A DNA stretch of 64,000 bases from the NCBI GenBank assembly GCA_036517255.1, contig DATDXE010000014.1:9994-73993 (forward strand). The letters run 5' to 3'. Below the pieces are notes generated by a model that saw nothing but the letters and a program-made list of their open reading frames with translations, was not told the DNA's origin and did no database searches. A program made the translations under genes and the position numbers. Below are positions 2,432 to 55,203 of this stretch, in pieces. Origin of the DNA: Minisyncoccota bacterium. Its GTDB lineage: Bacteria > Patescibacteriota > Minisyncoccia > Phycocordibacterales > WO2-35-19. Position 1 is the first letter of the stretch; every line of letters begins with the position of its first letter.

Positions 2432-3280
2432 ATGCCGAGTCGTAAAGTCATATCACTGTTCATTGTTTGTGTTGCCTTAGTGGTATCTATTATTATTGCT
2501 TCAGGAATCAAAAGCCCATCTACTATCGCTTTAAACACAGGCCTCTTATCAAAAGGGCCAGAAATAAATTTGCCTCAAAATACAAACTGGGAAGGAGACG
2601 TTTCCGCTCTTTCCTTAGCAGAAGTTAACGTTTCCGAAATACAAAAATCCTCTACTGGCAATACAACTGACGCTATCGCAGAGTCTCTTATGTCAAATTA
2701 TCTTGCCTTGCGACAAAATGGGGAATTAAATAACGGATCAGTACAAAAATTAATAGACCAAGCATCAGATTTCAGTGACGATACTGGCGCTACAAAAAAA
2801 ACATACTCAAGTAAGGACATTGTGGTTTCGGTCGACAATAGCAAAGAAGCAACAAAAGAGTATGGCACAGCACTTGGTAATATATTAAAAATAAATAACT
2901 CTAGTCAGAAAGGTCGGGCGGAACTACAGGCGTTTAGAGAACTCACTTCAACAAAAGATATCTCAAAAGGAAAGGAATTAAAAATAATAGGTGAGGATTA
3001 CAAAAAAATAGCCCAGAGCTTTGCAAAAATTAAGGTGCCATCTTCTTACGTAGAGTCACATTTAATATTCATTAATAGCATAGAAGGCCTAGGTGGAGCT
3101 GTAAATGATATGGCTAAAGTTTTAGAAGATCCAATAAAAGGTCTTTCTGGAATCGGAATATACCAGAGCAACCTTTCGATCATGCTATTAGAGATGAATA
3201 GAATAAGGGTAAAAATATTGAAAGATGGGGTCGTTTATAAACAAGGAGAACGTGGTTATTACCTATATTACGGAATATAA
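2432..3280 (+). CDS. hypothetical membrane-anchored/secreted protein
   Basis: N-terminal hydrophobic helix then Ser/Thr/Asn-rich extracellular-like region; co-directional with downstream T4SS-like cluster. Confidence 0.4.
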   Translation: MPSRKVISLFIVCVALVVSIIIASGIKSPSTIALNTGLLSKGPEINLPQNTNWEGDVSALSLAEVNVSEIQKSSTGNTTDAIAESLMSNYLALRQNGELNNGSVQKLIDQASDFSDDTGATKKTYSSKDIVVSVDNSKEATKEYGTALGNILKINNSSQKGRAELQAFRELTSTKDISKGKELKIIGEDYKKIAQSFAKIKVPSSYVESHLIFINSIEGLGGAVNDMAKVLEDPIKGLSGIGIYQSNLSIMLLEMNRIRVKILKDGVVYKQGERGYYLYYGI

Positions 3281-3299
3281 TGAATAAGAATCAAGAAGT

Positions 3300-4583
3300 A
3301 TGAACCAAGAATCAAGAAAAATAATCGCCAATTTTTTACTTTTTTCTGTGATTGGTATATCACTTTCACCTCTTTTTACAAGAAAAGCAGAGGCTCAGTG
3401 GGTAGTATACGATCCAGCAAATTTTGCTGTCAATGCCATGACAGCGGCAAACACTACGGCCAACACATGGGGTAAAGAGTTTGGTCTAGACACCATCGCC
3501 TTCATTATCATCAACATGATAATCGAAAGAGTAGCTGCTTCCACAGTCAACTGGATAAACAGCGGCTTCCAAGGAAGCCCCGCTTTCGTTACCAACCCTG
3601 AAGCCTATTTCAAAAAAATAGGGGATCAGGTGGCAGGACAACTGATTTTTAACCACCCCGATACCCGTTTTATGTGTGCTCCGTTCAAAGCTCGGGTACA
3701 AATTGCTCTTTCCCAGGCTTACCTCAACCCATTTGGCAATTTCCAATGTTCTCTTTCGAGAGTAGTGAGAAATTTTGATAATTTTATGAATGATTTTTCC
3801 GATGGAGGATGGGAGGGATTCATCGAATTAACACAGAATAGCCAAAACAATCCTCTTGGAAGTTTTAATCAACGAATGAATCAGATCAATCTTTCAGTAG
3901 GAAACAGCCTAGGCCAAGCCAACAAAGAACTTGACTGGGGGAAAGGATTTTTGTCGTTTAGAAAACCTTGTACTAAACTGAACGAGTTTGAAAGCAGAGA
4001 GTTTTTGACTGATGAGCAGTATGACGCACTACCATGTTTGGACAGCCCACCGATCGAAACACCGGGGAGTGTAGTCGAAAGCCAACTCAATCAAACCCTT
4101 CAGATTGGTAATAGTAGGCTACAGGTGGCAGATGAAATAAATGAAATAATAAGCGCTCTTTTGAACCAACTTGTGGGCAAGGCTTTGGGAGGATTACTTT
4201 CACTCGGCAAACCTGACCCCTCAAATGCAAATAGCCAAAGTTATCTAGAACAACTGCAAACAGCGACAGAAAACAACGATGCCGACCCTTATTACAATAC
4301 GAGTAACAACAATAGGATAAGAGATCTAAGCACAAATATAGAAAACCAGACAACGAACCTTGGAAATTCACTCGACTCAGCAGAAGATATCGGAAATTCT
4401 GTTTTCGGAGGAAATTATGTTCCCCCACCTGACACAAGCGGTTTCGGCGCAGGAACTGGTGAGACCGGGGGAAATGGAGGGTCGGGTAACACTGTCACTC
4501 TGCCTGACGGCACGGTAGTAAATTGTGCTAGCCCACAAACAGAGCCTGGTCTTGCGGCCTGCATAAGCGCAGGAAAGATATAA
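3300..4583 (+). CDS. hypothetical secreted protein, first gene of T4SS-like cluster
   Basis: Signal peptide-like N-terminus (LLFSVIGISLSPLFTRKAEAQ), Gly/Asn-rich C-terminus, translationally coupled to downstream VirB6-like gene. Confidence 0.45.
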   Translation: MNQESRKIIANFLLFSVIGISLSPLFTRKAEAQWVVYDPANFAVNAMTAANTTANTWGKEFGLDTIAFIIINMIIERVAASTVNWINSGFQGSPAFVTNPEAYFKKIGDQVAGQLIFNHPDTRFMCAPFKARVQIALSQAYLNPFGNFQCSLSRVVRNFDNFMNDFSDGGWEGFIELTQNSQNNPLGSFNQRMNQINLSVGNSLGQANKELDWGKGFLSFRKPCTKLNEFESREFLTDEQYDALPCLDSPPIETPGSVVESQLNQTLQIGNSRLQVADEINEIISALLNQLVGKALGGLLSLGKPDPSNANSQSYLEQLQTATENNDADPYYNTSNNNRIRDLSTNIENQTTNLGNSLDSAEDIGNSVFGGNYVPPPDTSGFGAGTGETGGNGGSGNTVTLPDGTVVNCASPQTEPGLAACISAGKI

Positions 4584-4586
4584 AAG

Positions 4587-6848
4587 ATGTCAAAAAAACT
4601 GATTACAATTTTGTTCCTGACACTAACACTAGGAGTATCTTTTTCTCCAATGTTTTCGAATAATGTTACTGCACAACTTACTGAAGAACAGCAGGCAATT
4701 CTGGAAAGGGCTGGAAGATCAGAAAGAGGGCAGCTAACTCAGGAAGAGTCAGCAGATCTAGAAAGTTTGTCGGCCAGAGGTAATTCTAGCTGCGATCTAT
4801 TACTTAATTTTAATGCCTGCGTAAAACAATTTTTAAGTGGATTAGCAGAGCTCCTGCTTACAATCGGAGCTTTGATACTTGCACTAGCTGGAAATATTTT
4901 TAATCTCGTCTTGAGCTTTACCATAGTAGAGTTTGCGGGCCAGATAAATAACGCAGAGGGACTAGGCGGAGCTATAAATAGCGCCTGGAGCACACTAAGA
5001 GACATCGGAAATATTATTTTCATTTTCGTACTCCTCTGGGCAGGCATACAAACTATCCTTGATATTGGTGGGGATTTGAAAAAAACAATAGTAAACATAA
5101 TACTTATCGGCCTTATAGTAAACTTCAGCCTTTTCATTACCAAAGTAGTAATAGATACCTCCAATATTGCGGCAGTCGGATTTTATAATTCGATCATGAA
5201 TAGCGGAGAGGCTGGAAGAACAGTACCGACAATAACATTGGCCGGAATAGATTTTGAAACAAGAGATTTTGCTGGAGTTTTTCTTCGTTTTACCGGAGTT
5301 CAGAGTTTTTTTAAAGCAGATATTCTAACTGGGGCAAATGATGACATATGGGGGAAAAAACCTTTCGTCACCGGCATACTGGGCATGATAACCATGATAG
5401 TCATGGCTATAGTTCTTTTTGTCGCAGCCATTATGTTCCTGGCAAGATTTATCATACTTCTATTCCTGATGATTTTGTCCCCTGTGGCTTTTATTGCTTT
5501 CATATTGCCAGCAATGAGAGGCAAGTTTAAAGAATGGTGGGACACACTAATAAGCCAGGCGTTTTTTGCACCATATTTTATGATCCTGATTTGGGTAGCA
5601 TTCAAAGTAATGGCTGGAGCAAGTGGAGCAATAGGAACACGAGAACAGAGCTTTGCTGGTATAGCCAATTCACCTTTTAGTGCCATCGGCCTTGTGTTCA
5701 ATTTTGCTTTAGTCATGGGCCTCACCATCATGGCCCTGGTCCTCTCCAAACAACTAGCCGGCAAAACCAAAGGCTTTGGAGCTGTTGCGGGATTTGTGGG
5801 TGGAGCCACTATCGGTGTCGCAGGCATGGCCGCAAGACAAACTGTGGGTAGGGGATCAAGAATGTTGTTAGACAGTAAATACAAAGACAGATTAGCAAAA
5901 ACATCATACGGAAGAGGTGCGTTGTGGATTGCGAATAAAGGACAAAAATCAAGTTTCGATGTAAGAGGAATTTCTGACTCTAAACTAGGGAAGGCAACTG
6001 GAGCTAAAAACTTACTCGGTGGGATAGGAGATATGAGTGGTAAAGATGGCTACAAAAAAGCTGTGGAGGATAATGCAAAAGCAAAAGCTCAATATGCTAA
6101 AGATGTTTATGGTTCCACAGCACAAGAAGAAAAAGCTCATAAAGACGCAAAAGAAAAAACTAAAGAAACAAAAGAAACTTCGGCAGAATCATACAAGAAT
6201 GCTAAAGGTAAAGAAAAGAGCGAGGCTCAAAATAGTGTGAACGAAGCAGAAAACAATAAGAAAAAAATAGAAATACTAGTAAAAGAAAAGAGAGAAGCTC
6301 ATGAAAAATTAGGAGTTGTAGCTGGTAGCCCTGCCGAAATAGCGGCAAAGAAAGAACTGGACGAAGCAAATGTAAAACTTGCCGAAGCTGAAACAAAACG
6401 AGCGGAAGAAATGGAAAAGAAAACTAAAATAGACGAAGGTAATTATTCTGACGCGACAAAGGAACTCGGAAAAGTAGCAGAAGAAGCTGAAAAAGCATGG
6501 AAAAATCTCAAGTCAGCAGGGGAAGCAAGAATGCGAGAATTTGCCGATAGAGTAGAAAAGAAAAACAAAATAATGGGTAGAGCCGCTATGGGAGGAATAA
6601 TAGGAGGAGTAGCGGCCGGACCACTTGGAGCTGCAATAGGAGCTGCCCTTGGAGGAGTGGTGGGAGCTGCAATCAAACAAGGGGTACGAGGCAACATAGA
6701 GGCGGCAAGAGCAATTAGAAAGGCGGCGGGAGGTAAAACAGAAGAAGAAGAGGCGGCAGAGATTTTGAAAAAATTGGATAAGAAAAAGAAAGAGGCAGAA
6801 GGAAAAAGTGATGAAGATAAAGGTGAGGCAAAACCTAAAGAAAGTTAA
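4587..6848 (+). CDS. VirB6/TrbL-like polytopic membrane protein with long Lys/Glu-rich coiled-coil and glycine-zipper C-terminus
   Basis: Signal peptide plus at least 6 predicted TM helices in first 400 aa, charged KEKE repeats, GGIIGGVAAGPLGAAIGAALGGVVGAAI glycine zipper; position in cluster with VirB4. Confidence 0.45.
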   Translation: MSKKLITILFLTLTLGVSFSPMFSNNVTAQLTEEQQAILERAGRSERGQLTQEESADLESLSARGNSSCDLLLNFNACVKQFLSGLAELLLTIGALILALAGNIFNLVLSFTIVEFAGQINNAEGLGGAINSAWSTLRDIGNIIFIFVLLWAGIQTILDIGGDLKKTIVNIILIGLIVNFSLFITKVVIDTSNIAAVGFYNSIMNSGEAGRTVPTITLAGIDFETRDFAGVFLRFTGVQSFFKADILTGANDDIWGKKPFVTGILGMITMIVMAIVLFVAAIMFLARFIILLFLMILSPVAFIAFILPAMRGKFKEWWDTLISQAFFAPYFMILIWVAFKVMAGASGAIGTREQSFAGIANSPFSAIGLVFNFALVMGLTIMALVLSKQLAGKTKGFGAVAGFVGGATIGVAGMAARQTVGRGSRMLLDSKYKDRLAKTSYGRGALWIANKGQKSSFDVRGISDSKLGKATGAKNLLGGIGDMSGKDGYKKAVEDNAKAKAQYAKDVYGSTAQEEKAHKDAKEKTKETKETSAESYKNAKGKEKSEAQNSVNEAENNKKKIEILVKEKREAHEKLGVVAGSPAEIAAKKELDEANVKLAEAETKRAEEMEKKTKIDEGNYSDATKELGKVAEEAEKAWKNLKSAGEARMREFADRVEKKNKIMGRAAMGGIIGGVAAGPLGAAIGAALGGVVGAAIKQGVRGNIEAARAIRKAAGGKTEEEEAAEILKKLDKKKKEAEGKSDEDKGEAKPKES

Positions 6849-32062: not shown

Positions 32063-32135
32063 CCGCCCGTAGCTCAGTCGGTAGAGCAGCTCCCTTTTAA
32101 GGAGAGGGTCGCAGGTTCGATTCCTGCCGGGCGGA
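32063..32135 (+). tRNA. tRNA-Lys (anticodon TTT), no encoded CCA
   Basis: Manual cloverleaf: acceptor ccgcccg/cgggcgg, anticodon loop cttttaa, T-loop ttcgatt. Confidence 0.85.
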
Positions 32136-32138
32136 CAA

Positions 32139-33183: not shown

Positions 33184-33861
33184 ATGACCGAACAACAGAC
33201 ACCGAAACTAATGGGGGTTCTCGTCGAGCACCAAGACGCATTCTCCCCGCTACCGATCGAAGACGCCCAATGGGTGATTCGGAATCCCAAAGAAGCAATC
33301 TCACTCTTCTTGATTGCGGTGAAAAACCGAGTACGAGAAGCGGCGACTACGATCAAAAACATTCTCTCTCCAGTCAAAAAGATCACCATCGCGGCGACGG
33401 CGGAGAAGAGGACGGAGGAGTGTTTCGCGGACAGCAAGAAGTACTACCGCGACCCCAGCGTTCTCTCGTTGCTTCCGGAATTTCAGCCAGCACGGGGGGT
33501 CGAGCAAGGGCAAGTGAGTCAGCTCAACGAGAGATCCAAGTTTTTGGGGATGGTGCAGAGTCTCCTCGGTGTAATGGAAGACGGTATCGCCGTTCTCTCA
33601 CGGCTCATCATTGAGTCTTTCCACATCTATACCTTGACCCAAATCGAGCAGCTCGTCGAGCGGCAAGAGGCAGGTGAGGATGTAGGCCTTCTCACGAACG
33701 GCTGGGGCAACTTCTTTCTGGTGCTGAATCGGGAAGGTAGCGTCTCGGTCGTCGATGTCATTCGGGCTGGCAGTCAGTGGCTCTTCTTCGCTTACGTCCT
33801 CGGCTTCGTCCGCGTCTGGTCTGTCGGGCGCCGCTTCTTCTCTCGCAACAAGACCCTGTGA
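33184..33861 (+). CDS. DGR target protein 1 (variable protein; VR at C-terminus), GC-rich
   Basis: 3' 111 nt match downstream TR 34116-34226 except at TR adenines; last 37 codons hypervariable-type Asn-derived positions. Confidence 0.8.
   Translation: MTEQQTPKLMGVLVEHQDAFSPLPIEDAQWVIRNPKEAISLFLIAVKNRVREAATTIKNILSPVKKITIAATAEKRTEECFADSKKYYRDPSVLSLLPEFQPARGVEQGQVSQLNERSKFLGMVQSLLGVMEDGIAVLSRLIIESFHIYTLTQIEQLVERQEAGEDVGLLTNGWGNFFLVLNREGSVSVVDVIRAGSQWLFFAYVLGFVRVWSVGRRFFSRNKTL
33739..33849 (+). repeat. DGR variable repeat VR1
   Basis: 111 nt aligned to TR1 with about 20 mismatches, every mismatch at a TR adenine (TR AAT/AAC codons). Confidence 0.9.
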
Positions 33862-33895
33862 TCCTTTGAATCTTTTTGGACACTTGGTCTTACTT

Positions 33896-33921
33896 CCCCA
33901 GTCTGTTTCGGCAGGCTGGGG
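33896..33921 (+). promoter_or_regulatory. GC hairpin 47 nt downstream of VR1 (ccccagtctg-tttcgg-caggctgggg), candidate DGR homing hairpin/cruciform
   Basis: 10-bp stem with one G-T position, located just 3' of VR/IMH as in characterised DGRs. Confidence 0.45.
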
Positions 33922-34115
33922 ATTTCATTTATAATAAATAAGAATACGCTGGCATCTTTGGGTTATTCTAAAGGTGGCGATTCAAAGCCAACAATTTTTG
34001 TCGGCTTCAAAAAATAAATAGTTGGTGCACTCCTTCAAGAAGTTAAAAACTTCAAAGGCGAAATCAACTCAGAGAGAATTCAATGAGTGGTGACTATAGA
34101 AGGTGGGGTGTACAA

Positions 34116-34226
34116 AGCGTCTCGGTCGTCAATGTCAATCGGAATGACAGTCAGTGGAACTTCTACGCTTACGACCTCGGCAACGACAACGTCTGGAATG
34201 TCGAGAACCGCTTCTTCTCTCGAAAC
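34116..34226 (+). repeat. DGR template repeat TR1 (adenine-rich, noncoding)
   Basis: Invariant partner of VR1; contains AAC/AAT at all variable positions. Confidence 0.9.
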
Positions 34227-34597
34227 TATCTGTTTTCCCCAAAGGAATTAACTCCTGAGGGGTTTTTCTTTTCTAAATATTCTTTCCAACCAGAGAGCAT
34301 TTTGCCTGCATCTACCAGTACTGGAGAAATTCTTACATATTTTTTGTCTACAAGTATTTTACATTCCCACATGAGGAGAAGGAAAAACTTGGCCAAATCA
34401 TTTTTTATCATAGCCTCTGATACCAGTTCAATTTTTCGAATTCCTTTGCTGTAGGCGGCTCTAAAAGTAAGATCGAGAGTTTCTAAAAGAAGTCTGTCTA
34501 TTTTTACCCCTATCGTTTGCCTGTGGCTTTTAGAAATGTGAGGAAGTATCTCCTGCCAGACCTTATACCCAAGTTTTAAACACTCTAGCACTGGCAA
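34226..34597 (-). CDS. avd: Avd-like accessory variability determinant (four-helix-bundle protein), TTG start, stop overlaps TR1 end
   Basis: 123 aa, basic helical protein with Avd/23S-IVS four-helix-bundle pattern (YKVWQ..., LLLMWECKIL); between TR and RT. Confidence 0.6.
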   Translation of the reverse strand: MPVLECLKLGYKVWQEILPHISKSHRQTIGVKIDRLLLETLDLTFRAAYSKGIRKIELVSEAMIKNDLAKFFLLLMWECKILVDKKYVRISPVLVDAGKMLSGWKEYLEKKNPSGVNSFGENR

Positions 34598-34605
34598 AGA
34601 GCTGC

Positions 34606-34613
34606 GGGGGGGG
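34606..34613. repeat. G8 homopolymer tract between avd1 start and RT1 start
   Basis: gctgcggggggggtagc in otherwise AT-rich spacer; paralogous G10 tract at same position in second cassette. Confidence 0.8.
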
Positions 34614-34626
34614 TAGCATTTGAGGA

Positions 34627-35640
34627 ATGAAAATTCAGCTTGCTCACAGTTATGATGATATCATTTCAATCAAAAATTTACTCGAAGCTTGGGAAGAATT
34701 TATACCGGGGAAAAGAAATAAAGAAGATGTGGCTAAGTTTGCTCTCGACTTGATGGATAATATTGTTTCCCTGCATAAGGATTTGGAGAGCAAAAAATAT
34801 AGACATGGTGCCTATACTGCTTTCAATATATCTGATCCAAAACCTAGGAATATTCACAAAGCTAATGTGAGAGATAGGCTATTGCATCGCGCTTTGTACA
34901 GAATCCTTTACCCTCATTTTGACAAAACTTTTTATTCAGAATCATATTCGTGCCGAGTAAATAAAGGTACTCACAAAGCGATGAATAAGTTTAGGAAATT
35001 TGCCAAGAAAGAATCTTTGAATCACTCAAAAACTCTATGGATATTAAAATGTGATATAAGAAAATTTTTTGCTTCCATTGACCACAATATTTTGTGTAAA
35101 ATTGTCGAAAAATACATACCCGATCAAAATATAAACTGGCTACTTACTGAAATTATTGAGAGTTTCCATTCTACTCAAAGAGGTTTCGGCTTACCTTTGG
35201 GTAATGTAACTTCACAGGTATTGGTGAATATTTATATGAATGAATTTGATACTTGGGTAAAACATGTAATGAAAATAAAATATTATATTAGGTATGCGGA
35301 TGATTTTCTGATTTTAAATAAAGATAAAGATTATTTACTCGAGCTTATTCCAAAAATTGCAGATTTTCTGGAAGAAAATTTAAAACTTTCTCTACATCCC
35401 CAAAAGGTTTCTATTCAAACTTTTGCCTCAGGGACTGACTTTCTAGGTTGGGTAAATTTTGTTGATCACAAAGTGTTGCGCACAAGTACAAAAAGAAGAT
35501 TACTCAAAGCTTTATCACAGAGTGAAAATATAAATGTCTTACAATCTTACAGTAGCCTTTTGAAACATGGGAATCAATTTAGGCTTAAAAGTAAGATAAA
35601 TGAAAAAATTGAGATTTTAAGAGGGGGAGTTAATAATTAA
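34627..35640 (+). CDS. DGR reverse transcriptase 1
   Basis: RT motifs: NISDPKPRNIHKANVRDRLLH, IRKFFASIDH, GLPLGNVTSQVLVNIYMNEFD, IRYADDFLIL (YADD catalytic motif); adjacent TR/VR. Confidence 0.85.
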   Translation: MKIQLAHSYDDIISIKNLLEAWEEFIPGKRNKEDVAKFALDLMDNIVSLHKDLESKKYRHGAYTAFNISDPKPRNIHKANVRDRLLHRALYRILYPHFDKTFYSESYSCRVNKGTHKAMNKFRKFAKKESLNHSKTLWILKCDIRKFFASIDHNILCKIVEKYIPDQNINWLLTEIIESFHSTQRGFGLPLGNVTSQVLVNIYMNEFDTWVKHVMKIKYYIRYADDFLILNKDKDYLLELIPKIADFLEENLKLSLHPQKVSIQTFASGTDFLGWVNFVDHKVLRTSTKRRLLKALSQSENINVLQSYSSLLKHGNQFRLKSKINEKIEILRGGVNN

Positions 35641-50836: not shown

Positions 50837-51106
50837 TCAAATCAATCTTTTGTTTCTAAAAGCAAATCCTGAACTGGATTTTAGATACCTCTCAAATTCT
50901 TGTGATTTGGTTTTGTTTTCAAAAGCTCCATACCAAACTAATTTAAATGGAGCCTTTGTGGAGGAGTATGTGGCCTTACTATTATTATGTTCAGTAATTC
51001 TTCTTTTTATATCCGATGTTGAACCAATATAAAAAGTTTTATCTTTTAAACTTTGAATTATATAACAGTAGTACATAGGTATTTGCCCCACGTCGCCCCA
51101 CTCCAC
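50837..51106 (-). CDS. GIY-YIG nuclease-domain protein (UPF0213-like, 89 aa)
   Basis: YYCYIIQSLKDKTFYIGSTSDIKRRITEHNN GIY-YIG motif. Confidence 0.7.
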   Translation of the reverse strand: MEWGDVGQIPMYYCYIIQSLKDKTFYIGSTSDIKRRITEHNNSKATYSSTKAPFKLVWYGAFENKTKSQEFERYLKSSSGFAFRNKRLI

Positions 51107-52620: not shown

Positions 52621-53361
52621 GTGTTTTTAACGAAAGATGAGGGCGACTATATGTCGATTGCATCTACTGTAAAAGAAGGTCAGATCGATGAGATCTGCCG
52701 GACTGCCGACGCATTTACGAAATCCGTGGTGCGTACTGCTCTCGAAGAATTGATTGCCGAAGGCGAACTCGAAACTGAGGGAGCTCAGCGGGTAATCTCA
52801 AATGGTGATCGTCTGAGAGCCAAAATGATCCCCGCCTACAAGGTGGCGATTGCGGAACTCTCAACGAAAAGAACGAGCTGTCTTGCACTCATTTCGAGTG
52901 GCAAGAAGGTCGTCATCAAGGCTACGACTGGCAAGAAATTGATCAGTGGGGCTAAGGACACGTTCCCTGGTTGGATCGATGCCGACTTTACAAATTACGG
53001 CTGCGATGTTCTCGGAGAGGCGAAGCCGGAAACGCCAGTCGAAGTCTTCGAGATGACAGCTGCCGCTGATTTCTCGGGCATATTTGGGAGTTTCGATGTT
53101 GAGCTCGATGATCTCGCCTTCGACCAAGAGCAGGTGATCGAGTTTGCCCGCGAAAATACAGACTGGCTTCATCCGGAAGGCTACGCCACCTTGCTTCTTT
53201 TCAAAGTTGGAAAAGGTGGGAAAAAGAAGTTCTTCGTGGCGCGTGTCTGCCGGAGTGCCGGCCGTCTCGAGGCCTATGCCCACCACTTTTCGATCGACTA
53301 TGTCTGGGATGCCGAGCACCGGTATCGTGTGGTTGTCCCGCAACTGAAACTCAAATCTTAG
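52621..53361 (+). CDS. DGR target protein 2 (VR at C-terminus), moderately GC-rich
   Basis: 3' 117 nt match TR 53665-53781 except at TR adenines. Confidence 0.8.
   Translation: MFLTKDEGDYMSIASTVKEGQIDEICRTADAFTKSVVRTALEELIAEGELETEGAQRVISNGDRLRAKMIPAYKVAIAELSTKRTSCLALISSGKKVVIKATTGKKLISGAKDTFPGWIDADFTNYGCDVLGEAKPETPVEVFEMTAAADFSGIFGSFDVELDDLAFDQEQVIEFARENTDWLHPEGYATLLLFKVGKGGKKKFFVARVCRSAGRLEAYAHHFSIDYVWDAEHRYRVVVPQLKLKS
53230..53346 (+). repeat. DGR variable repeat VR2
   Basis: 117 nt aligned to TR2 with about 17 mismatches, all at TR adenines. Confidence 0.9.
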
Positions 53362-53664
53362 GGCTCGACCCTTTGATTCTCAATCCCTTGGACCCTCTAT
53401 CAACTTTGGTTGGTATGGCCCAAGGGATTTTTGTTATACTAATATTCCAATATATGGATGCATCGCGGTCATGACTTCGATGCCATGATTGGGTGAAAAT
53501 ATTATTTGAGAATTTTGTTGGCTACGGCTTATAGAAGAGTAGATATATTTTTACAAACAAAAAATATTTAGTTGGTGTAGTAAACTGGAGGACTTTTATG
53601 TCCCAAATAATATAGCTTTTTGTCGTGATTCGGCAGATTGCTTTTTGGATGGTTTACTGCACAT

Positions 53665-53781
53665 TTCTTCGTGGCGAATGTCTACCGGAATGCCGGCAAT
53701 CTCAAGGCCAATGCCAACCACTTTTCGAACGACAATGTCTGGAATGCCGAGAACCGGAATCGTGTGGTTGTCCCGAAACTA
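53665..53781 (+). repeat. DGR template repeat TR2
   Basis: Adenine-rich invariant partner of VR2; shares gacaa(c/t)gtctggaatg(t/c)cgagaacc core with TR1. Confidence 0.9.
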
Positions 53782-53804
53782 GTTATTTCTTCCCGAGAAA
53801 TTTA

Positions 53805-54149
53805 TTACTTCGCGGGGAGTTTTGTTTCCAAGCCTTTCTTCCATCCTCCGAGCATTCGACCTATCTCTTCAAGTTTCACTGACAGTTCAGAATGTTTTTC
53901 TGTCGGTATGAGTTTATTCTCCCAAGCTAGTTGCACGAAGAATTTTACTGCATCGAGTTTTGAGATCGTCTTCCTAAGTGCTATAATTTTCTCTACTGTT
54001 GGCAGATAAGCTGAATTTAGAGTGTATTCCAGGAGAGATAAGAGACTCTGGTCTAATCTATAACCGATTCCGAACCTTTCGACCCTAGGGAAGTTCCTTA
54101 AAATATTGAGCCAGAGAGAATAAACCTCTTTTTCTTTTATAATTACCAC
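53805..54149 (-). CDS. avd: Avd-like accessory variability determinant 2 (GTG start)
   Basis: 114 aa helical protein with same pattern and position as avd1. Confidence 0.6.
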   Translation of the reverse strand: MVIIKEKEVYSLWLNILRNFPRVERFGIGYRLDQSLLSLLEYTLNSAYLPTVEKIIALRKTISKLDAVKFFVQLAWENKLIPTEKHSELSVKLEEIGRMLGGWKKGLETKLPAK

Positions 54150-54161
54150 GGGCGGTCGTGC

Positions 54162-54171
54162 GGGGGGGGGG
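54162..54171. repeat. G10 homopolymer tract between avd2 start and RT2 start
   Basis: cggggggggggc directly read from sequence. Confidence 0.85.
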
Positions 54172-54204
54172 CATTATTGTCATATTTTTTGTGTTCTAAT
54201 TTTT

Positions 54205-55203
54205 ATGAAAAATAAAATAATCATCTCTTATCTAGATATTATATCAGTTCAAAATCTTTACGAAGCATGGGAAGAATTTCTGCCCGGAAAAAAGAAGAAA
54301 GAAGATGTGGCAGAATTTGCATTAAATTTGTCTAGTAATATTTTAAAATTGCATTCCGATCTAGTTAATAGAAATTATACCCATGGAGCTTACAAAGCTT
54401 TTAACATTTCTGACCCAAAACCTCGTAATATTCATAAAGCCTCTGTTCGCGATCGGCTCTTGCACCATGCTATTTATAAAATCCTGTACCCATACTTCGA
54501 TAGGCTTTTTATTTTTGACTCATATTCCTGTCGTGTGGCTAAAGGAACACACAAAGCCATAGAAAGATTTAAAAAATTTGGAAACCAAGTCTCCAAGAGC
54601 AATACCAAAACTTGTTGGGTTTTGAAGTGTGACATACGAAAATTTTTTGCAAGTATAAATCATAAGATTTTGCTAGACATTTTAAAAAAATATATAAAAG
54701 ACCGAGAAATCATTTGGCTTCTAGAAAGAATTATATTAAGTTTCTTTTCAACAAAGGTTGGGGTCGGTTTACCTCTGGGCAATCTTACGTCTCAACTTTT
54801 GGTGAATATTTATATGAATGAATTTGATCAATATATAAAACATATATTAAAAATTCGACATTATATACGTTATGCCGATGATTTTGTTTTTCTTGATACT
54901 GATAAGGATCGGCTTTTGGAACTTATTCCTAGGACAGCTGATTTTCTAGACGAGCACCTCAAACTACAAATTCATCCTGACAAACTGTTTATCCGAACTC
55001 TTGCTTCTGGCTTGGATTTTCTCGGCTGGGTACATTTTCCGAAATATCGAGTATTGCGGACCGTAACAAAAAGGAGAATGTTCAAAAGAATAAAAGAAGT
55101 AGAGTGGAATAAAGAGACGGTAGGTTCTTATCTTGGGATGCTAAGATGGGGGGATAATTACAATCTGGAGCAGATTATAGAAGATGAAAAATCGTTGCAC
55201 TGA
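54205..55203 (+). CDS. DGR reverse transcriptase 2 (paralog of RT1)
   Basis: Same RT motifs incl. IRYADDFVFL; roughly 65% identical to RT1 by eye. Confidence 0.85.
   Translation: MKNKIIISYLDIISVQNLYEAWEEFLPGKKKKEDVAEFALNLSSNILKLHSDLVNRNYTHGAYKAFNISDPKPRNIHKASVRDRLLHHAIYKILYPYFDRLFIFDSYSCRVAKGTHKAIERFKKFGNQVSKSNTKTCWVLKCDIRKFFASINHKILLDILKKYIKDREIIWLLERIILSFFSTKVGVGLPLGNLTSQLLVNIYMNEFDQYIKHILKIRHYIRYADDFVFLDTDKDRLLELIPRTADFLDEHLKLQIHPDKLFIRTLASGLDFLGWVHFPKYRVLRTVTKRRMFKRIKEVEWNKETVGSYLGMLRWGDNYNLEQIIEDEKSLH

Follow-up and report, generated by a model that had tools for sequence, protein, structure and literature searches.

Does a single small bacterial genome carry two complete diversity-generating retroelements (DGRs), and is the second a copy of the first or a system of its own? 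The question is raised by a 64-kb window (the whole stretch of DNA that was analysed, 64,000 nucleotides), a fragment of a Candidatus Paceibacterota metagenome-assembled genome (MAG). A preliminary description of the window had placed in it one DGR cassette (DGR-1) and, 20 kb away, a second one of identical architecture (DGR-2, 52621-55203), the subject of this analysis. Our reading, to which we assign a probability of roughly 85%, is that DGR-2 is an intact chromosomal DGR of architecture B3, of the type found in Candidate Phyla Radiation (CPR) bacteria, and that DGR-1 and DGR-2 are ancient paralogous lineages acting independently on their own targets. Proteins identical to products of the window are annotated under the locus tags VJH67_02255 and VJH67_02435. 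The DGR-2 reverse transcriptase (RT), RT2, was used as a query against one genome per GTDB species, which returned 172 relatives; the locus comparisons below, with labels such as L001, concern the best 80 of these 172, apart from L081, a public assembly identical to the window.

DGR-2 is intact and belongs to a clade-wide family

All canonical DGR parts are present and intact in DGR-2. The open reading frames (ORFs) of RT2, of the accessory protein Avd2, and of the target T2 are uninterrupted, and the variable repeat (VR2) is a copy of the template repeat (TR2) changed only at template adenines. The coding and repeat features are as follows.

52651-53361, plus strand: T2, the DGR-2 target gene, 236 amino acids (aa), with three helices in its N-terminal region and VR2 at the end of its C-terminal domain; alternative GTG start at 52621
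53230-53345, plus strand: VR2, the variable repeat, encoding 39 codons at the end of T2
53665-53780, plus strand: TR2, the non-coding template repeat, with 30 adenines in 116 positions
53805-54149, minus strand: avd2, accessory variability determinant, 114 aa, GTG start (Pfam bAvd, 1.9e-16; NCBIfam DivGenRetAVD, 2.4e-18)
54205-55203, plus strand: RT2, the DGR reverse transcriptase, 332 aa (RVT_1, 8e-22), with the motifs LGNLTSQ and YADD

VR2 and TR2 form a direct repeat that aligns without gaps at an offset of 435 nucleotides (nt). The two copies differ at 15 positions, or 16 when the pair 53346/53781 is included; at each of them, an A of the TR faces C, G, or T in the VR, and non-adenine mismatches number zero over the 116 nt. 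The chance that 15 of 15 mismatches would fall on the 30 adenines among 116 positions is 5.6e-11 (hypergeometric). The adenine rule stated in the preliminary description is confirmed, while its count of about 17 differences was slightly too high. VR2 covers codons 194-232 of the 236-codon T2 gene, at the 3' end of the target, and TR2 sits in the spacer, where overlapping ORFs found no support. The adenine-bearing TR codons are mostly AAT or AAC (the AAY design), and only two TR2 codons can mutate to a stop. The variable codons number 16 in DGR-2 and 18 in DGR-1, with ~10^16 possible sequences each (the theoretical diversity of VR2 is ~10^16.6). A 16-nt A-free segment together with CG(A/C)AAC is common to VR and TR, and the homology stops within 1-2 nt beyond it, giving a 3' boundary that resembles an initiation-of-mutagenic-homing (IMH) site. 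The A-free 3' segment of DGR-2 is TCGTGTGGTTGTCCCG.

The DGR-1 cassette (33184-35640, plus strand) serves for comparison and is built from the following parts.

33184-33861, plus strand: T1, the DGR-1 target
33739-33849, plus strand: VR1
33895-33922: hairpin
34012-34122: 5' RNA domain
34116-34226, plus strand: TR1
34237-34262: terminator hairpin
34226-34597, minus strand: avd1
34606-34613: run of eight G (G8)
34627-35640, plus strand: RT1

VR1 (33739-33849) and TR1 (34116-34226) obey the same rule, with 20 of 20 differences at TR adenines (chance ~6e-16). Each VR agrees with only its own TR at all non-A positions, and a scan of both window strands with each TR, in which any base was allowed at the A positions, found only the cognate VRs and no extra targets. 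The preliminary description had asked whether each RT might act in trans on the VR of the other cassette. When the 3' ends of the VRs are compared, the A-free segments prove to be unlike (CCGCTTCTTCTCTCG in DGR-1 versus TCGTGTGGTTGTCCCG in DGR-2); because of this difference, and because each VR matches its own TR only, cross-homing between the two cassettes is unlikely as judged from these sequences.

The RT motif typical of DGRs is [I/L/V]GxxxSQ, accompanied by YxDD. RT2 carries HYIRYADDFVFL, as noted at the outset, and the DGR-type LGNLTSQ motif; RT1 has LGNVTSQ and YADD, and both RTs match RVT_1. The assignment of Avd2, read from the minus strand with a GTG start as first described, is backed by a score of 60.9 bits against bAvd (cut-off 40), and an identical 114-aa product is annotated by NCBI as a four helix bundle protein. 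Translation of T2 most likely starts at ATG 52651 and not at GTG 52621, because public collections contain precisely this product and its 77 homologues have the same start.

Neither T1 nor T2 has a Pfam domain, and all 77 members of the T2 family lack one. An AF2 (AlphaFold2) model of full-length T2 (predicted local distance difference test, pLDDT, 92.2) has three N-terminal helices followed by an alpha/beta domain. Searches with full-length T2 were uninformative; TvpA (2y3c) aligns over 112 residues. C-type-lectin-fold DGR variable proteins (Mtd, TvpA, archaeal AvpA, Thermus TaqVP) have the same order of secondary structure, one strand, two helices, and four strands, and in them as in T2 the VR spans the last strands. 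The groups named in the comparison of target folds are the C-type lectins proper, the FGE/EgtB/SenA/PvdO group, and PorK. We tentatively model the targets as a very divergent C-type-lectin fold, and the VR domains of the Patescibacteria DGR clade have been predicted to be new C-type-lectin variants (Roux et al. 2021, PMC8144416). Inspection reveals no N-terminal hydrophobic segment in either target and no signal peptide in T2; both targets are therefore probably cytoplasmic.

DGR-2 is a member of a large family of like-built cassettes that extends across the clade. In ~70 of the 80 related loci, target(VR), TR, inverted avd, and RT follow one another in this order, with A-biased TR/VR pairs at the same distances; in nearly all related loci, the RT is immediately preceded by avd on the minus strand. 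The TR-(avd)-RT layout is architecture B3, to which 90% of CPR DGRs conform (Wu et al. 2018, PMC5758913); the reverse-strand avd between TR and RT that defines it is found in both cassettes of the window. A cellular DGR clade restricted to Patescibacteria has been described as DGR clade 2 (Roux et al. 2021, PMC8144416). DGR-2 shares with these systems a target with a C-terminal VR, a TR, an opposite-strand avd and an RT, a Paceibacterota host, a chromosomal, non-viral location, and a target devoid of a recognisable domain or membrane segment. There is no essential difference, apart from the presence here of two cassettes with different target sub-families in one genome. A place of the RTs in clade 2 is suggested only indirectly, by the best 80 RT relatives, nearly all of them Patescibacteria MAGs.

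The preliminary description regarded two DGRs in 64 kb as remarkable, which overstates the case. CPR genomes are enriched in DGRs (PMC8144416), and ~10% of DGR-bearing complete genomes hold several (PMC5758913). At least five of 76 related genomes have two cassettes; among the best 80 relatives, four genomes contribute two RT loci each (L026/L029, L037/L058, L054/L076, and L062/L080). Given these paired cassettes in other genomes, two in one CPR genome are not exceptional.

Nearly all of the best 80 relatives are labelled as Patescibacteria or Saccharibacteria lineages, and the others look mis-binned. L014, L015, L020, L043, L061, and L063 have a Patescibacteria-type cassette on contigs labelled as Gammaproteobacteria, Bacteroidota, or Nitrospira MAGs; these labels are probably binning contamination. 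In L008, the exception to the usual avd orientation, avd (3131-3454, plus strand) and the TR-RNA domain (3672-3782, minus strand) are inverted relative to the RT; the spacer may be a point at which rearrangement between the RT and the target-TR-avd module can occur. A further TR-RNA domain lies on the contig of L036 (8029-8149, plus strand), 4 kb downstream of the RT, probably a second cassette at the contig end. L080 has two VRs (557-678 and 2972-3093) that match one TR.

Structured RNA and a simple repeat around the template

How would a cassette of this kind bound and prime the copying of its template? In the Bordetella phage DGR, the TR has a segment of 20 nt on its upstream side and a spacer of 140 nt on its downstream side, which together form a primer duplex, a stop duplex, and protein-binding elements; neither priming nor stopping can do without this flanking RNA (Handa et al., bioRxiv 10.1101/2023.10.23.563531). 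A 3' spacer of the BPP-1 type, ~140 nt long, is absent from DGR-2, where only a hairpin and a U run separate the TR from the avd stop codon. The elements found around VR2 and TR2 are listed here.

53382-53429, plus strand: long hairpin and U run, 20 nt past the T2 stop codon (fold of 53346-53440: -33.4 kcal/mol, z -4.6)
53562-53671, plus strand: structured RNA domain directly 5' of TR2 (covariance model, 81.1 bits)
53572-53576, plus strand: invariant UUGGU motif of this domain
53577-53586/53651-53660, plus strand: helix P1 of this domain
53590-53593/53600-53603, plus strand: helix P2 of this domain, which also contains a P3 hairpin
53789-53827, plus strand: terminator-like hairpin (53789-53819) and U run, 8 nt past TR2, -11.5 kcal/mol, overlapping the 3' end of avd2 on the opposite strand
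54162-54171, strand not applicable: run of ten G (G10; poly-C on the avd strand) in the 55-nt divergent avd-RT spacer

The 5' RNA domain is ~95 nt long and adjoins every TR upstream in an alignment of 55 cassettes. Its consensus holds 18 base pairs, in which a 10-bp P1 encloses P2 and P3, and compensatory double changes occur in 17 of the 18. Alignment cells that form a standard pair amount to 97.2%, versus 69.7% after shuffling and 34-50% when the pairing is slid by 1-3 columns; the covariation score is 0.893, versus 0.317 for shuffled alignments (none of 500 reaches the observed value) and at most 0.195 for slid ones. A covariance model detects exactly two copies in the window, 53562-53671 and 34012-34122, one per cassette, and recovers the domain in 17 of 17 held-out loci that span the TR region; ten held-out loci with no match start too near the RT to span it.

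Downstream of the TR, a hairpin abutting a U run lies 30-45 nt past the TR in 65 of 70 related cassettes (median -12.6 kcal/mol, median z -4.1). It was assessed by per-sequence folding and shuffling, as MAFFT misaligns its variable-length loops, and its stems vary in sequence yet remain complementary. Both copies in the window, 53789-53819 and 34237-34262, overlap with the opposite-strand avd genes at their 3' ends. The hairpin at 53382-53429 could be the terminator of the target gene, the inverted repeat seen downstream of VRs, or both.

The segment just 5' of UUGGU can pair with the TR 3' end or with the spacer that follows it. This pairing is stronger within loci than between loci (Mann-Whitney p = 1e-6), and sister sub-clades offer compensatory examples (UGAAG/CUUCA, UAAAC/GUUUA, and GUGAG/CUCAC). 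In DGR-2, UUAGUU at 53568-53573 faces AACUAG at 53777-53782, and in DGR-1 the corresponding segments are AUAGUU/AACUAU. In both cassettes, the paired AAC directly follows the last mutated adenine.

On the model of the Bordetella phage DGR, the cassette may work as follows. TR2 would be transcribed as an RNA of its own, ~270 nt long (about 53555-53828). RT2 and Avd2 would bind the flanking RNA structure, with the upstream domain recruiting both proteins, and would copy the TR into cDNA with misincorporation opposite adenines. The 10-bp P1 helix, which ends 3-4 nt before the TR, may stop cDNA synthesis. For a cis-priming site, the strongest candidate is UUGGU, beside the short pairing that involves the TR 3' end, and this role fits the position of the last mutated adenine. 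The cDNA would then replace VR2 through homology, via the A-free 3' segment, and could thereby rewrite up to 16 codons on the surface of the putative lectin-like domain.

The likeness to the BPP-1 system (mtd-avd-TR-brt) extends to the adenine-specific TR-to-VR transfer, the use of an RT and Avd, the AAY codons, the C-terminal place of the VR in a putative lectin-like fold, a hairpin located downstream of the VR, and structured RNA on the flanks of the TR. The two systems differ in that avd is inverted and placed between TR and RT in DGR-2, in that the 140-nt spacer after the phage TR is reduced to ~45 nt (one hairpin and a U run), in the large structured domain upstream of TR2, and in the position of the partner of the TR 3' end, which lies ~200 nt upstream and not downstream. 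If UUGGU is the priming site, the RNA is permuted relative to the phage paradigm, an arrangement suggested by the lack of room for a long downstream spacer.

Several further RNA observations concern the window and its relatives. Rfam holds no family that matches the TR-flanking RNA at gathering score: the window gave only tRNAs, and 14 related loci gave nothing for it. A sub-threshold match to Rfam RT-9 (22.9 bits versus a gathering score of 46.1, E 0.4) lies at 53458-53510, plus strand, in the VR2-TR2 spacer upstream of the RNA domain, and is probably due to chance. L001, L004, L012, and L043, of one sub-clade, share another conserved block (ggtagtaggtgaatat ... ccaccgaatccagtatccat) ~120-220 nt upstream of the TR, beyond the TR-RNA domain. 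In L020, the stretch 6181-6300 (plus strand), which begins ~230 nt past the RT gene, matches the c-di-GMP-II riboswitch with 60.2 bits, more than the gathering score.

The avd-RT spacer holds a simple repeat that also recurs across the clade. The G10 tract at 54162-54171 in DGR-2 and the G8 tract at 34606-34613 in DGR-1 are the only G/C runs of at least 7 in the 64-kb window, and of the 65 runs of at least 8 in 693 kb of related loci, 62 fall within the avd-RT spacer. The tract is found in 71 of 74 cassettes, with lengths of 6-14 and a mode of 9-10 (10, 10, and 9 in L001, L004, and L005). Five loci (L014, L015, L040, L049, and L066) have (TC)n or (CA)n in place of poly-C; the near-identical L014 and L015 are one TC unit apart, a difference that decides whether an upstream ATG is in frame with avd.

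The end of the tract and the conserved N-terminus of Avd are separated by only 3-12 nt, too few to accommodate a ribosome-binding site. A canonical start codon after the tract is lacking in about half of the cassettes and present in 36, and a weak TAAT..TA motif precedes the tract on the avd strand. A start at an ATG upstream of the poly-C, with the tract read through as poly-proline, was rejected as a general rule: an in-frame start is found solely upstream in 15 of 71 cassettes, the frames of the upstream ATGs are about uniform (~11, 17, and 10), and 36 cassettes offer a canonical start after the tract. In a public assembly identical to the window (L081, 2381-2470, equivalent to window ~54085-54174, minus strand), the gene caller gave a 29-aa product and not the 114-aa Avd, and the 123-aa Avd1 product is missing from the protein collection; the avd start region appears to confuse gene callers.

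The tract may act as a phase switch, as a site of transcription initiation, or in some other control of avd or RT. In contingency loci, the phase-variable genes of Neisseria, Haemophilus, and Campylobacter, a gene likewise carries a long G/C homopolymer or a dinucleotide repeat, at its 5' end or in its promoter, with lengths differing between related loci. The present case differs in that the length differences are known between loci and in that it is ambiguous where the tract lies with respect to the start codon of avd. To our knowledge, no such repeat switch is known for a DGR. The literature consulted, which did not extend to the main paper on CPR DGRs (Paul et al. 2017), contains no description of a non-coding RNA, a homopolymer, or phase variation in DGRs, and the covarying 5' RNA, the 3' terminator hairpin, and the avd-RT simple repeat, all clade-wide, do not seem to have been described before.

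A broader proposal, which we put forward tentatively and regard as rather doubtful, is that DGRs of the CPR type use a permuted RNA, with the UUGGU primer motif and a protein-binding multi-helix domain upstream and a terminator hairpin downstream, and that the hypermutable repeat gates their activity. If so, the poly-G or dinucleotide repeat could switch Avd, and hence the DGR, on and off, which would amount to a stochastic switch placed over a targeted hypermutator. The clade-wide features bear on how cDNA is primed and bounded without a phage-type downstream spacer, and on how a genome of ~1 Mb controls a hypermutator.

Origin, activity, and relationship of the two cassettes

Some observations weigh against DGR-2 as an intact and independently acting system. 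The priming site and the role of P1 are assigned by analogy alone, and a consensus scan detected no promoters. The pairing with the TR 3' end comprises only 6 bp in the window cassettes, most of them A/U, and sister sub-clades give it better support. Avd1 scores 27.6 bits against bAvd, under the Pfam cut-off of 40 (E 4e-6; NCBIfam DivGenRetAVD, 1e-7). The T2 protein, VR included, is identical in nine contigs, in a tenth variant the sole difference is residue 45, which lies outside the VR, and one further assembly is 100% identical in DNA over 6 kb at the locus. There is no sign of current VR diversification at the consensus level across 10 assemblies, a level that hides minority variants.

An acquisition of one or both cassettes from a phage or another mobile element could account for the base composition of the locus. 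The target genes have a GC content of 0.48-0.54, versus ~0.40 in the surroundings and 0.30-0.35 in the RTs, and the same mosaic is seen in both cassettes. Almost no synteny is conserved around related cassettes, and the RT tree, a neighbor-joining (NJ) tree without bootstrap support values that does not settle the deep branching order, does not track lineage names. We nevertheless consider horizontal acquisition unlikely. DGR-1 lies amid genes for a SpoU methylase, Fpg, and a Mur ligase, and DGR-2 amid a pseudouridine synthase gene, the gene for ribosomal protein L19, and tRNAs; no integrase or phage gene adjoins either cassette, and CPR DGRs are almost entirely cellular (PMC8144416). The adjacency of RT and L19 is retained in L031, which, with weak matches, is all that synteny contributes as a test of vertical descent.

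A frozen DGR-2, no longer active and with a target that works with a fixed sequence, is quite unlikely in our assessment. It would agree with the invariant VR2 amino-acid sequence in the 10 assemblies, with an ATG just upstream of the poly-C that is out of frame with avd, and with the avd left uncalled by the gene caller in one public assembly. These assemblies may, however, share one study and population, and their consensus would conceal minority variants. The ORFs are intact, TR2 retains its 30 adenines in AAY-type codons, and the flanking RNA elements are intact and score well. The lack of any non-A difference between VR2 and TR2 argues for recent homing.

We now return to DGR-2 as an intact cassette and to its kinship with DGR-1. 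The preliminary description called DGR-2 a complete second DGR of identical architecture, and this is borne out: both cassettes run target(VR), TR, avd on the minus strand, RT, and all parts are homologous. RT1 and RT2 are 61% identical over 328 aa, a clear similarity, and Avd1 and Avd2 are 36.5% identical. T1 and T2 share 25% pairwise identity with a weak score, and their families are joined by a profile-profile comparison (hhalign, 98.9% probability, E 3.5e-17, 198 columns including the VR region). The common core of TR1 and TR2, also noted earlier, is identical at 27 of 29 nt. On these comparisons, the two cassettes are homologous in RT, Avd, target, and TR alike.

Closeness is another matter. 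The best 80 relatives are 54-66% identical to RT2, as close as RT1 or closer; in a ranking of distances, RT2 is 18th of 81 among the neighbours of RT1, and RT1 is 47th among those of RT2. Avd2 clusters, at 58-66% identity, with Avds from 12 other genomes with T2-family targets, whereas Avd1 clusters with cassettes of the T1 family, L003 among them (Avd 69%, RT 70%). These separate groupings of Avd and target, and the RT ranks, indicate that DGR-1 and DGR-2 are two old paralogous lineages, homologous as whole units, each with orthologue-like relatives elsewhere and with no recent duplication between them. The earlier proposal of a duplication of a whole DGR with its target, and with it the view of RT2 as a close paralog of RT1, thus holds on a deep time scale only.

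A recent in-genome duplication of DGR-1 (target, TR, avd, and RT together) followed by fast divergence is highly improbable: the shared part order, the TR core, and the homology of all three proteins would follow from it, the NJ tree, unbootstrapped as it is, puts RT2 beside the RT1 and L003 pair, and the RT pairs of three other genomes (L026/L029, L037/L058, and L054/L076) are true sisters, but the RT identity is no higher than to the RTs of dozens of other genomes (best matches 65-70%), the Avds and targets of the window have diverged as far as stated, and each Avd is far closer to those of its own target family in other genomes.

As a cassette, DGR-2 adds little, since CPR DGRs are common, the layout is standard, and multi-DGR genomes are documented. 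Its value is that of a clean entry into the least understood DGR clade. Two intact, divergent, and presumably orthogonal cassettes in one small genome provide a natural test of which component, RT, Avd, or RNA, sets the choice of template.

Neighbouring genes

A stand-alone GIY-YIG nuclease ORF (50837-51106, minus strand, 89 aa, Pfam 6e-18) lies near two tRNA genes, 1.5 kb upstream of DGR-2. At 32063-32136 (plus strand), ARAGORN calls a 'tRNA-Stop, anticodon tta'; standard numbering gives the loop C-U-UUU-A-A, that of tRNA-Lys(UUU), with a G-A mismatch at 27-43, and the gene is most likely a miscall and not a suppressor.

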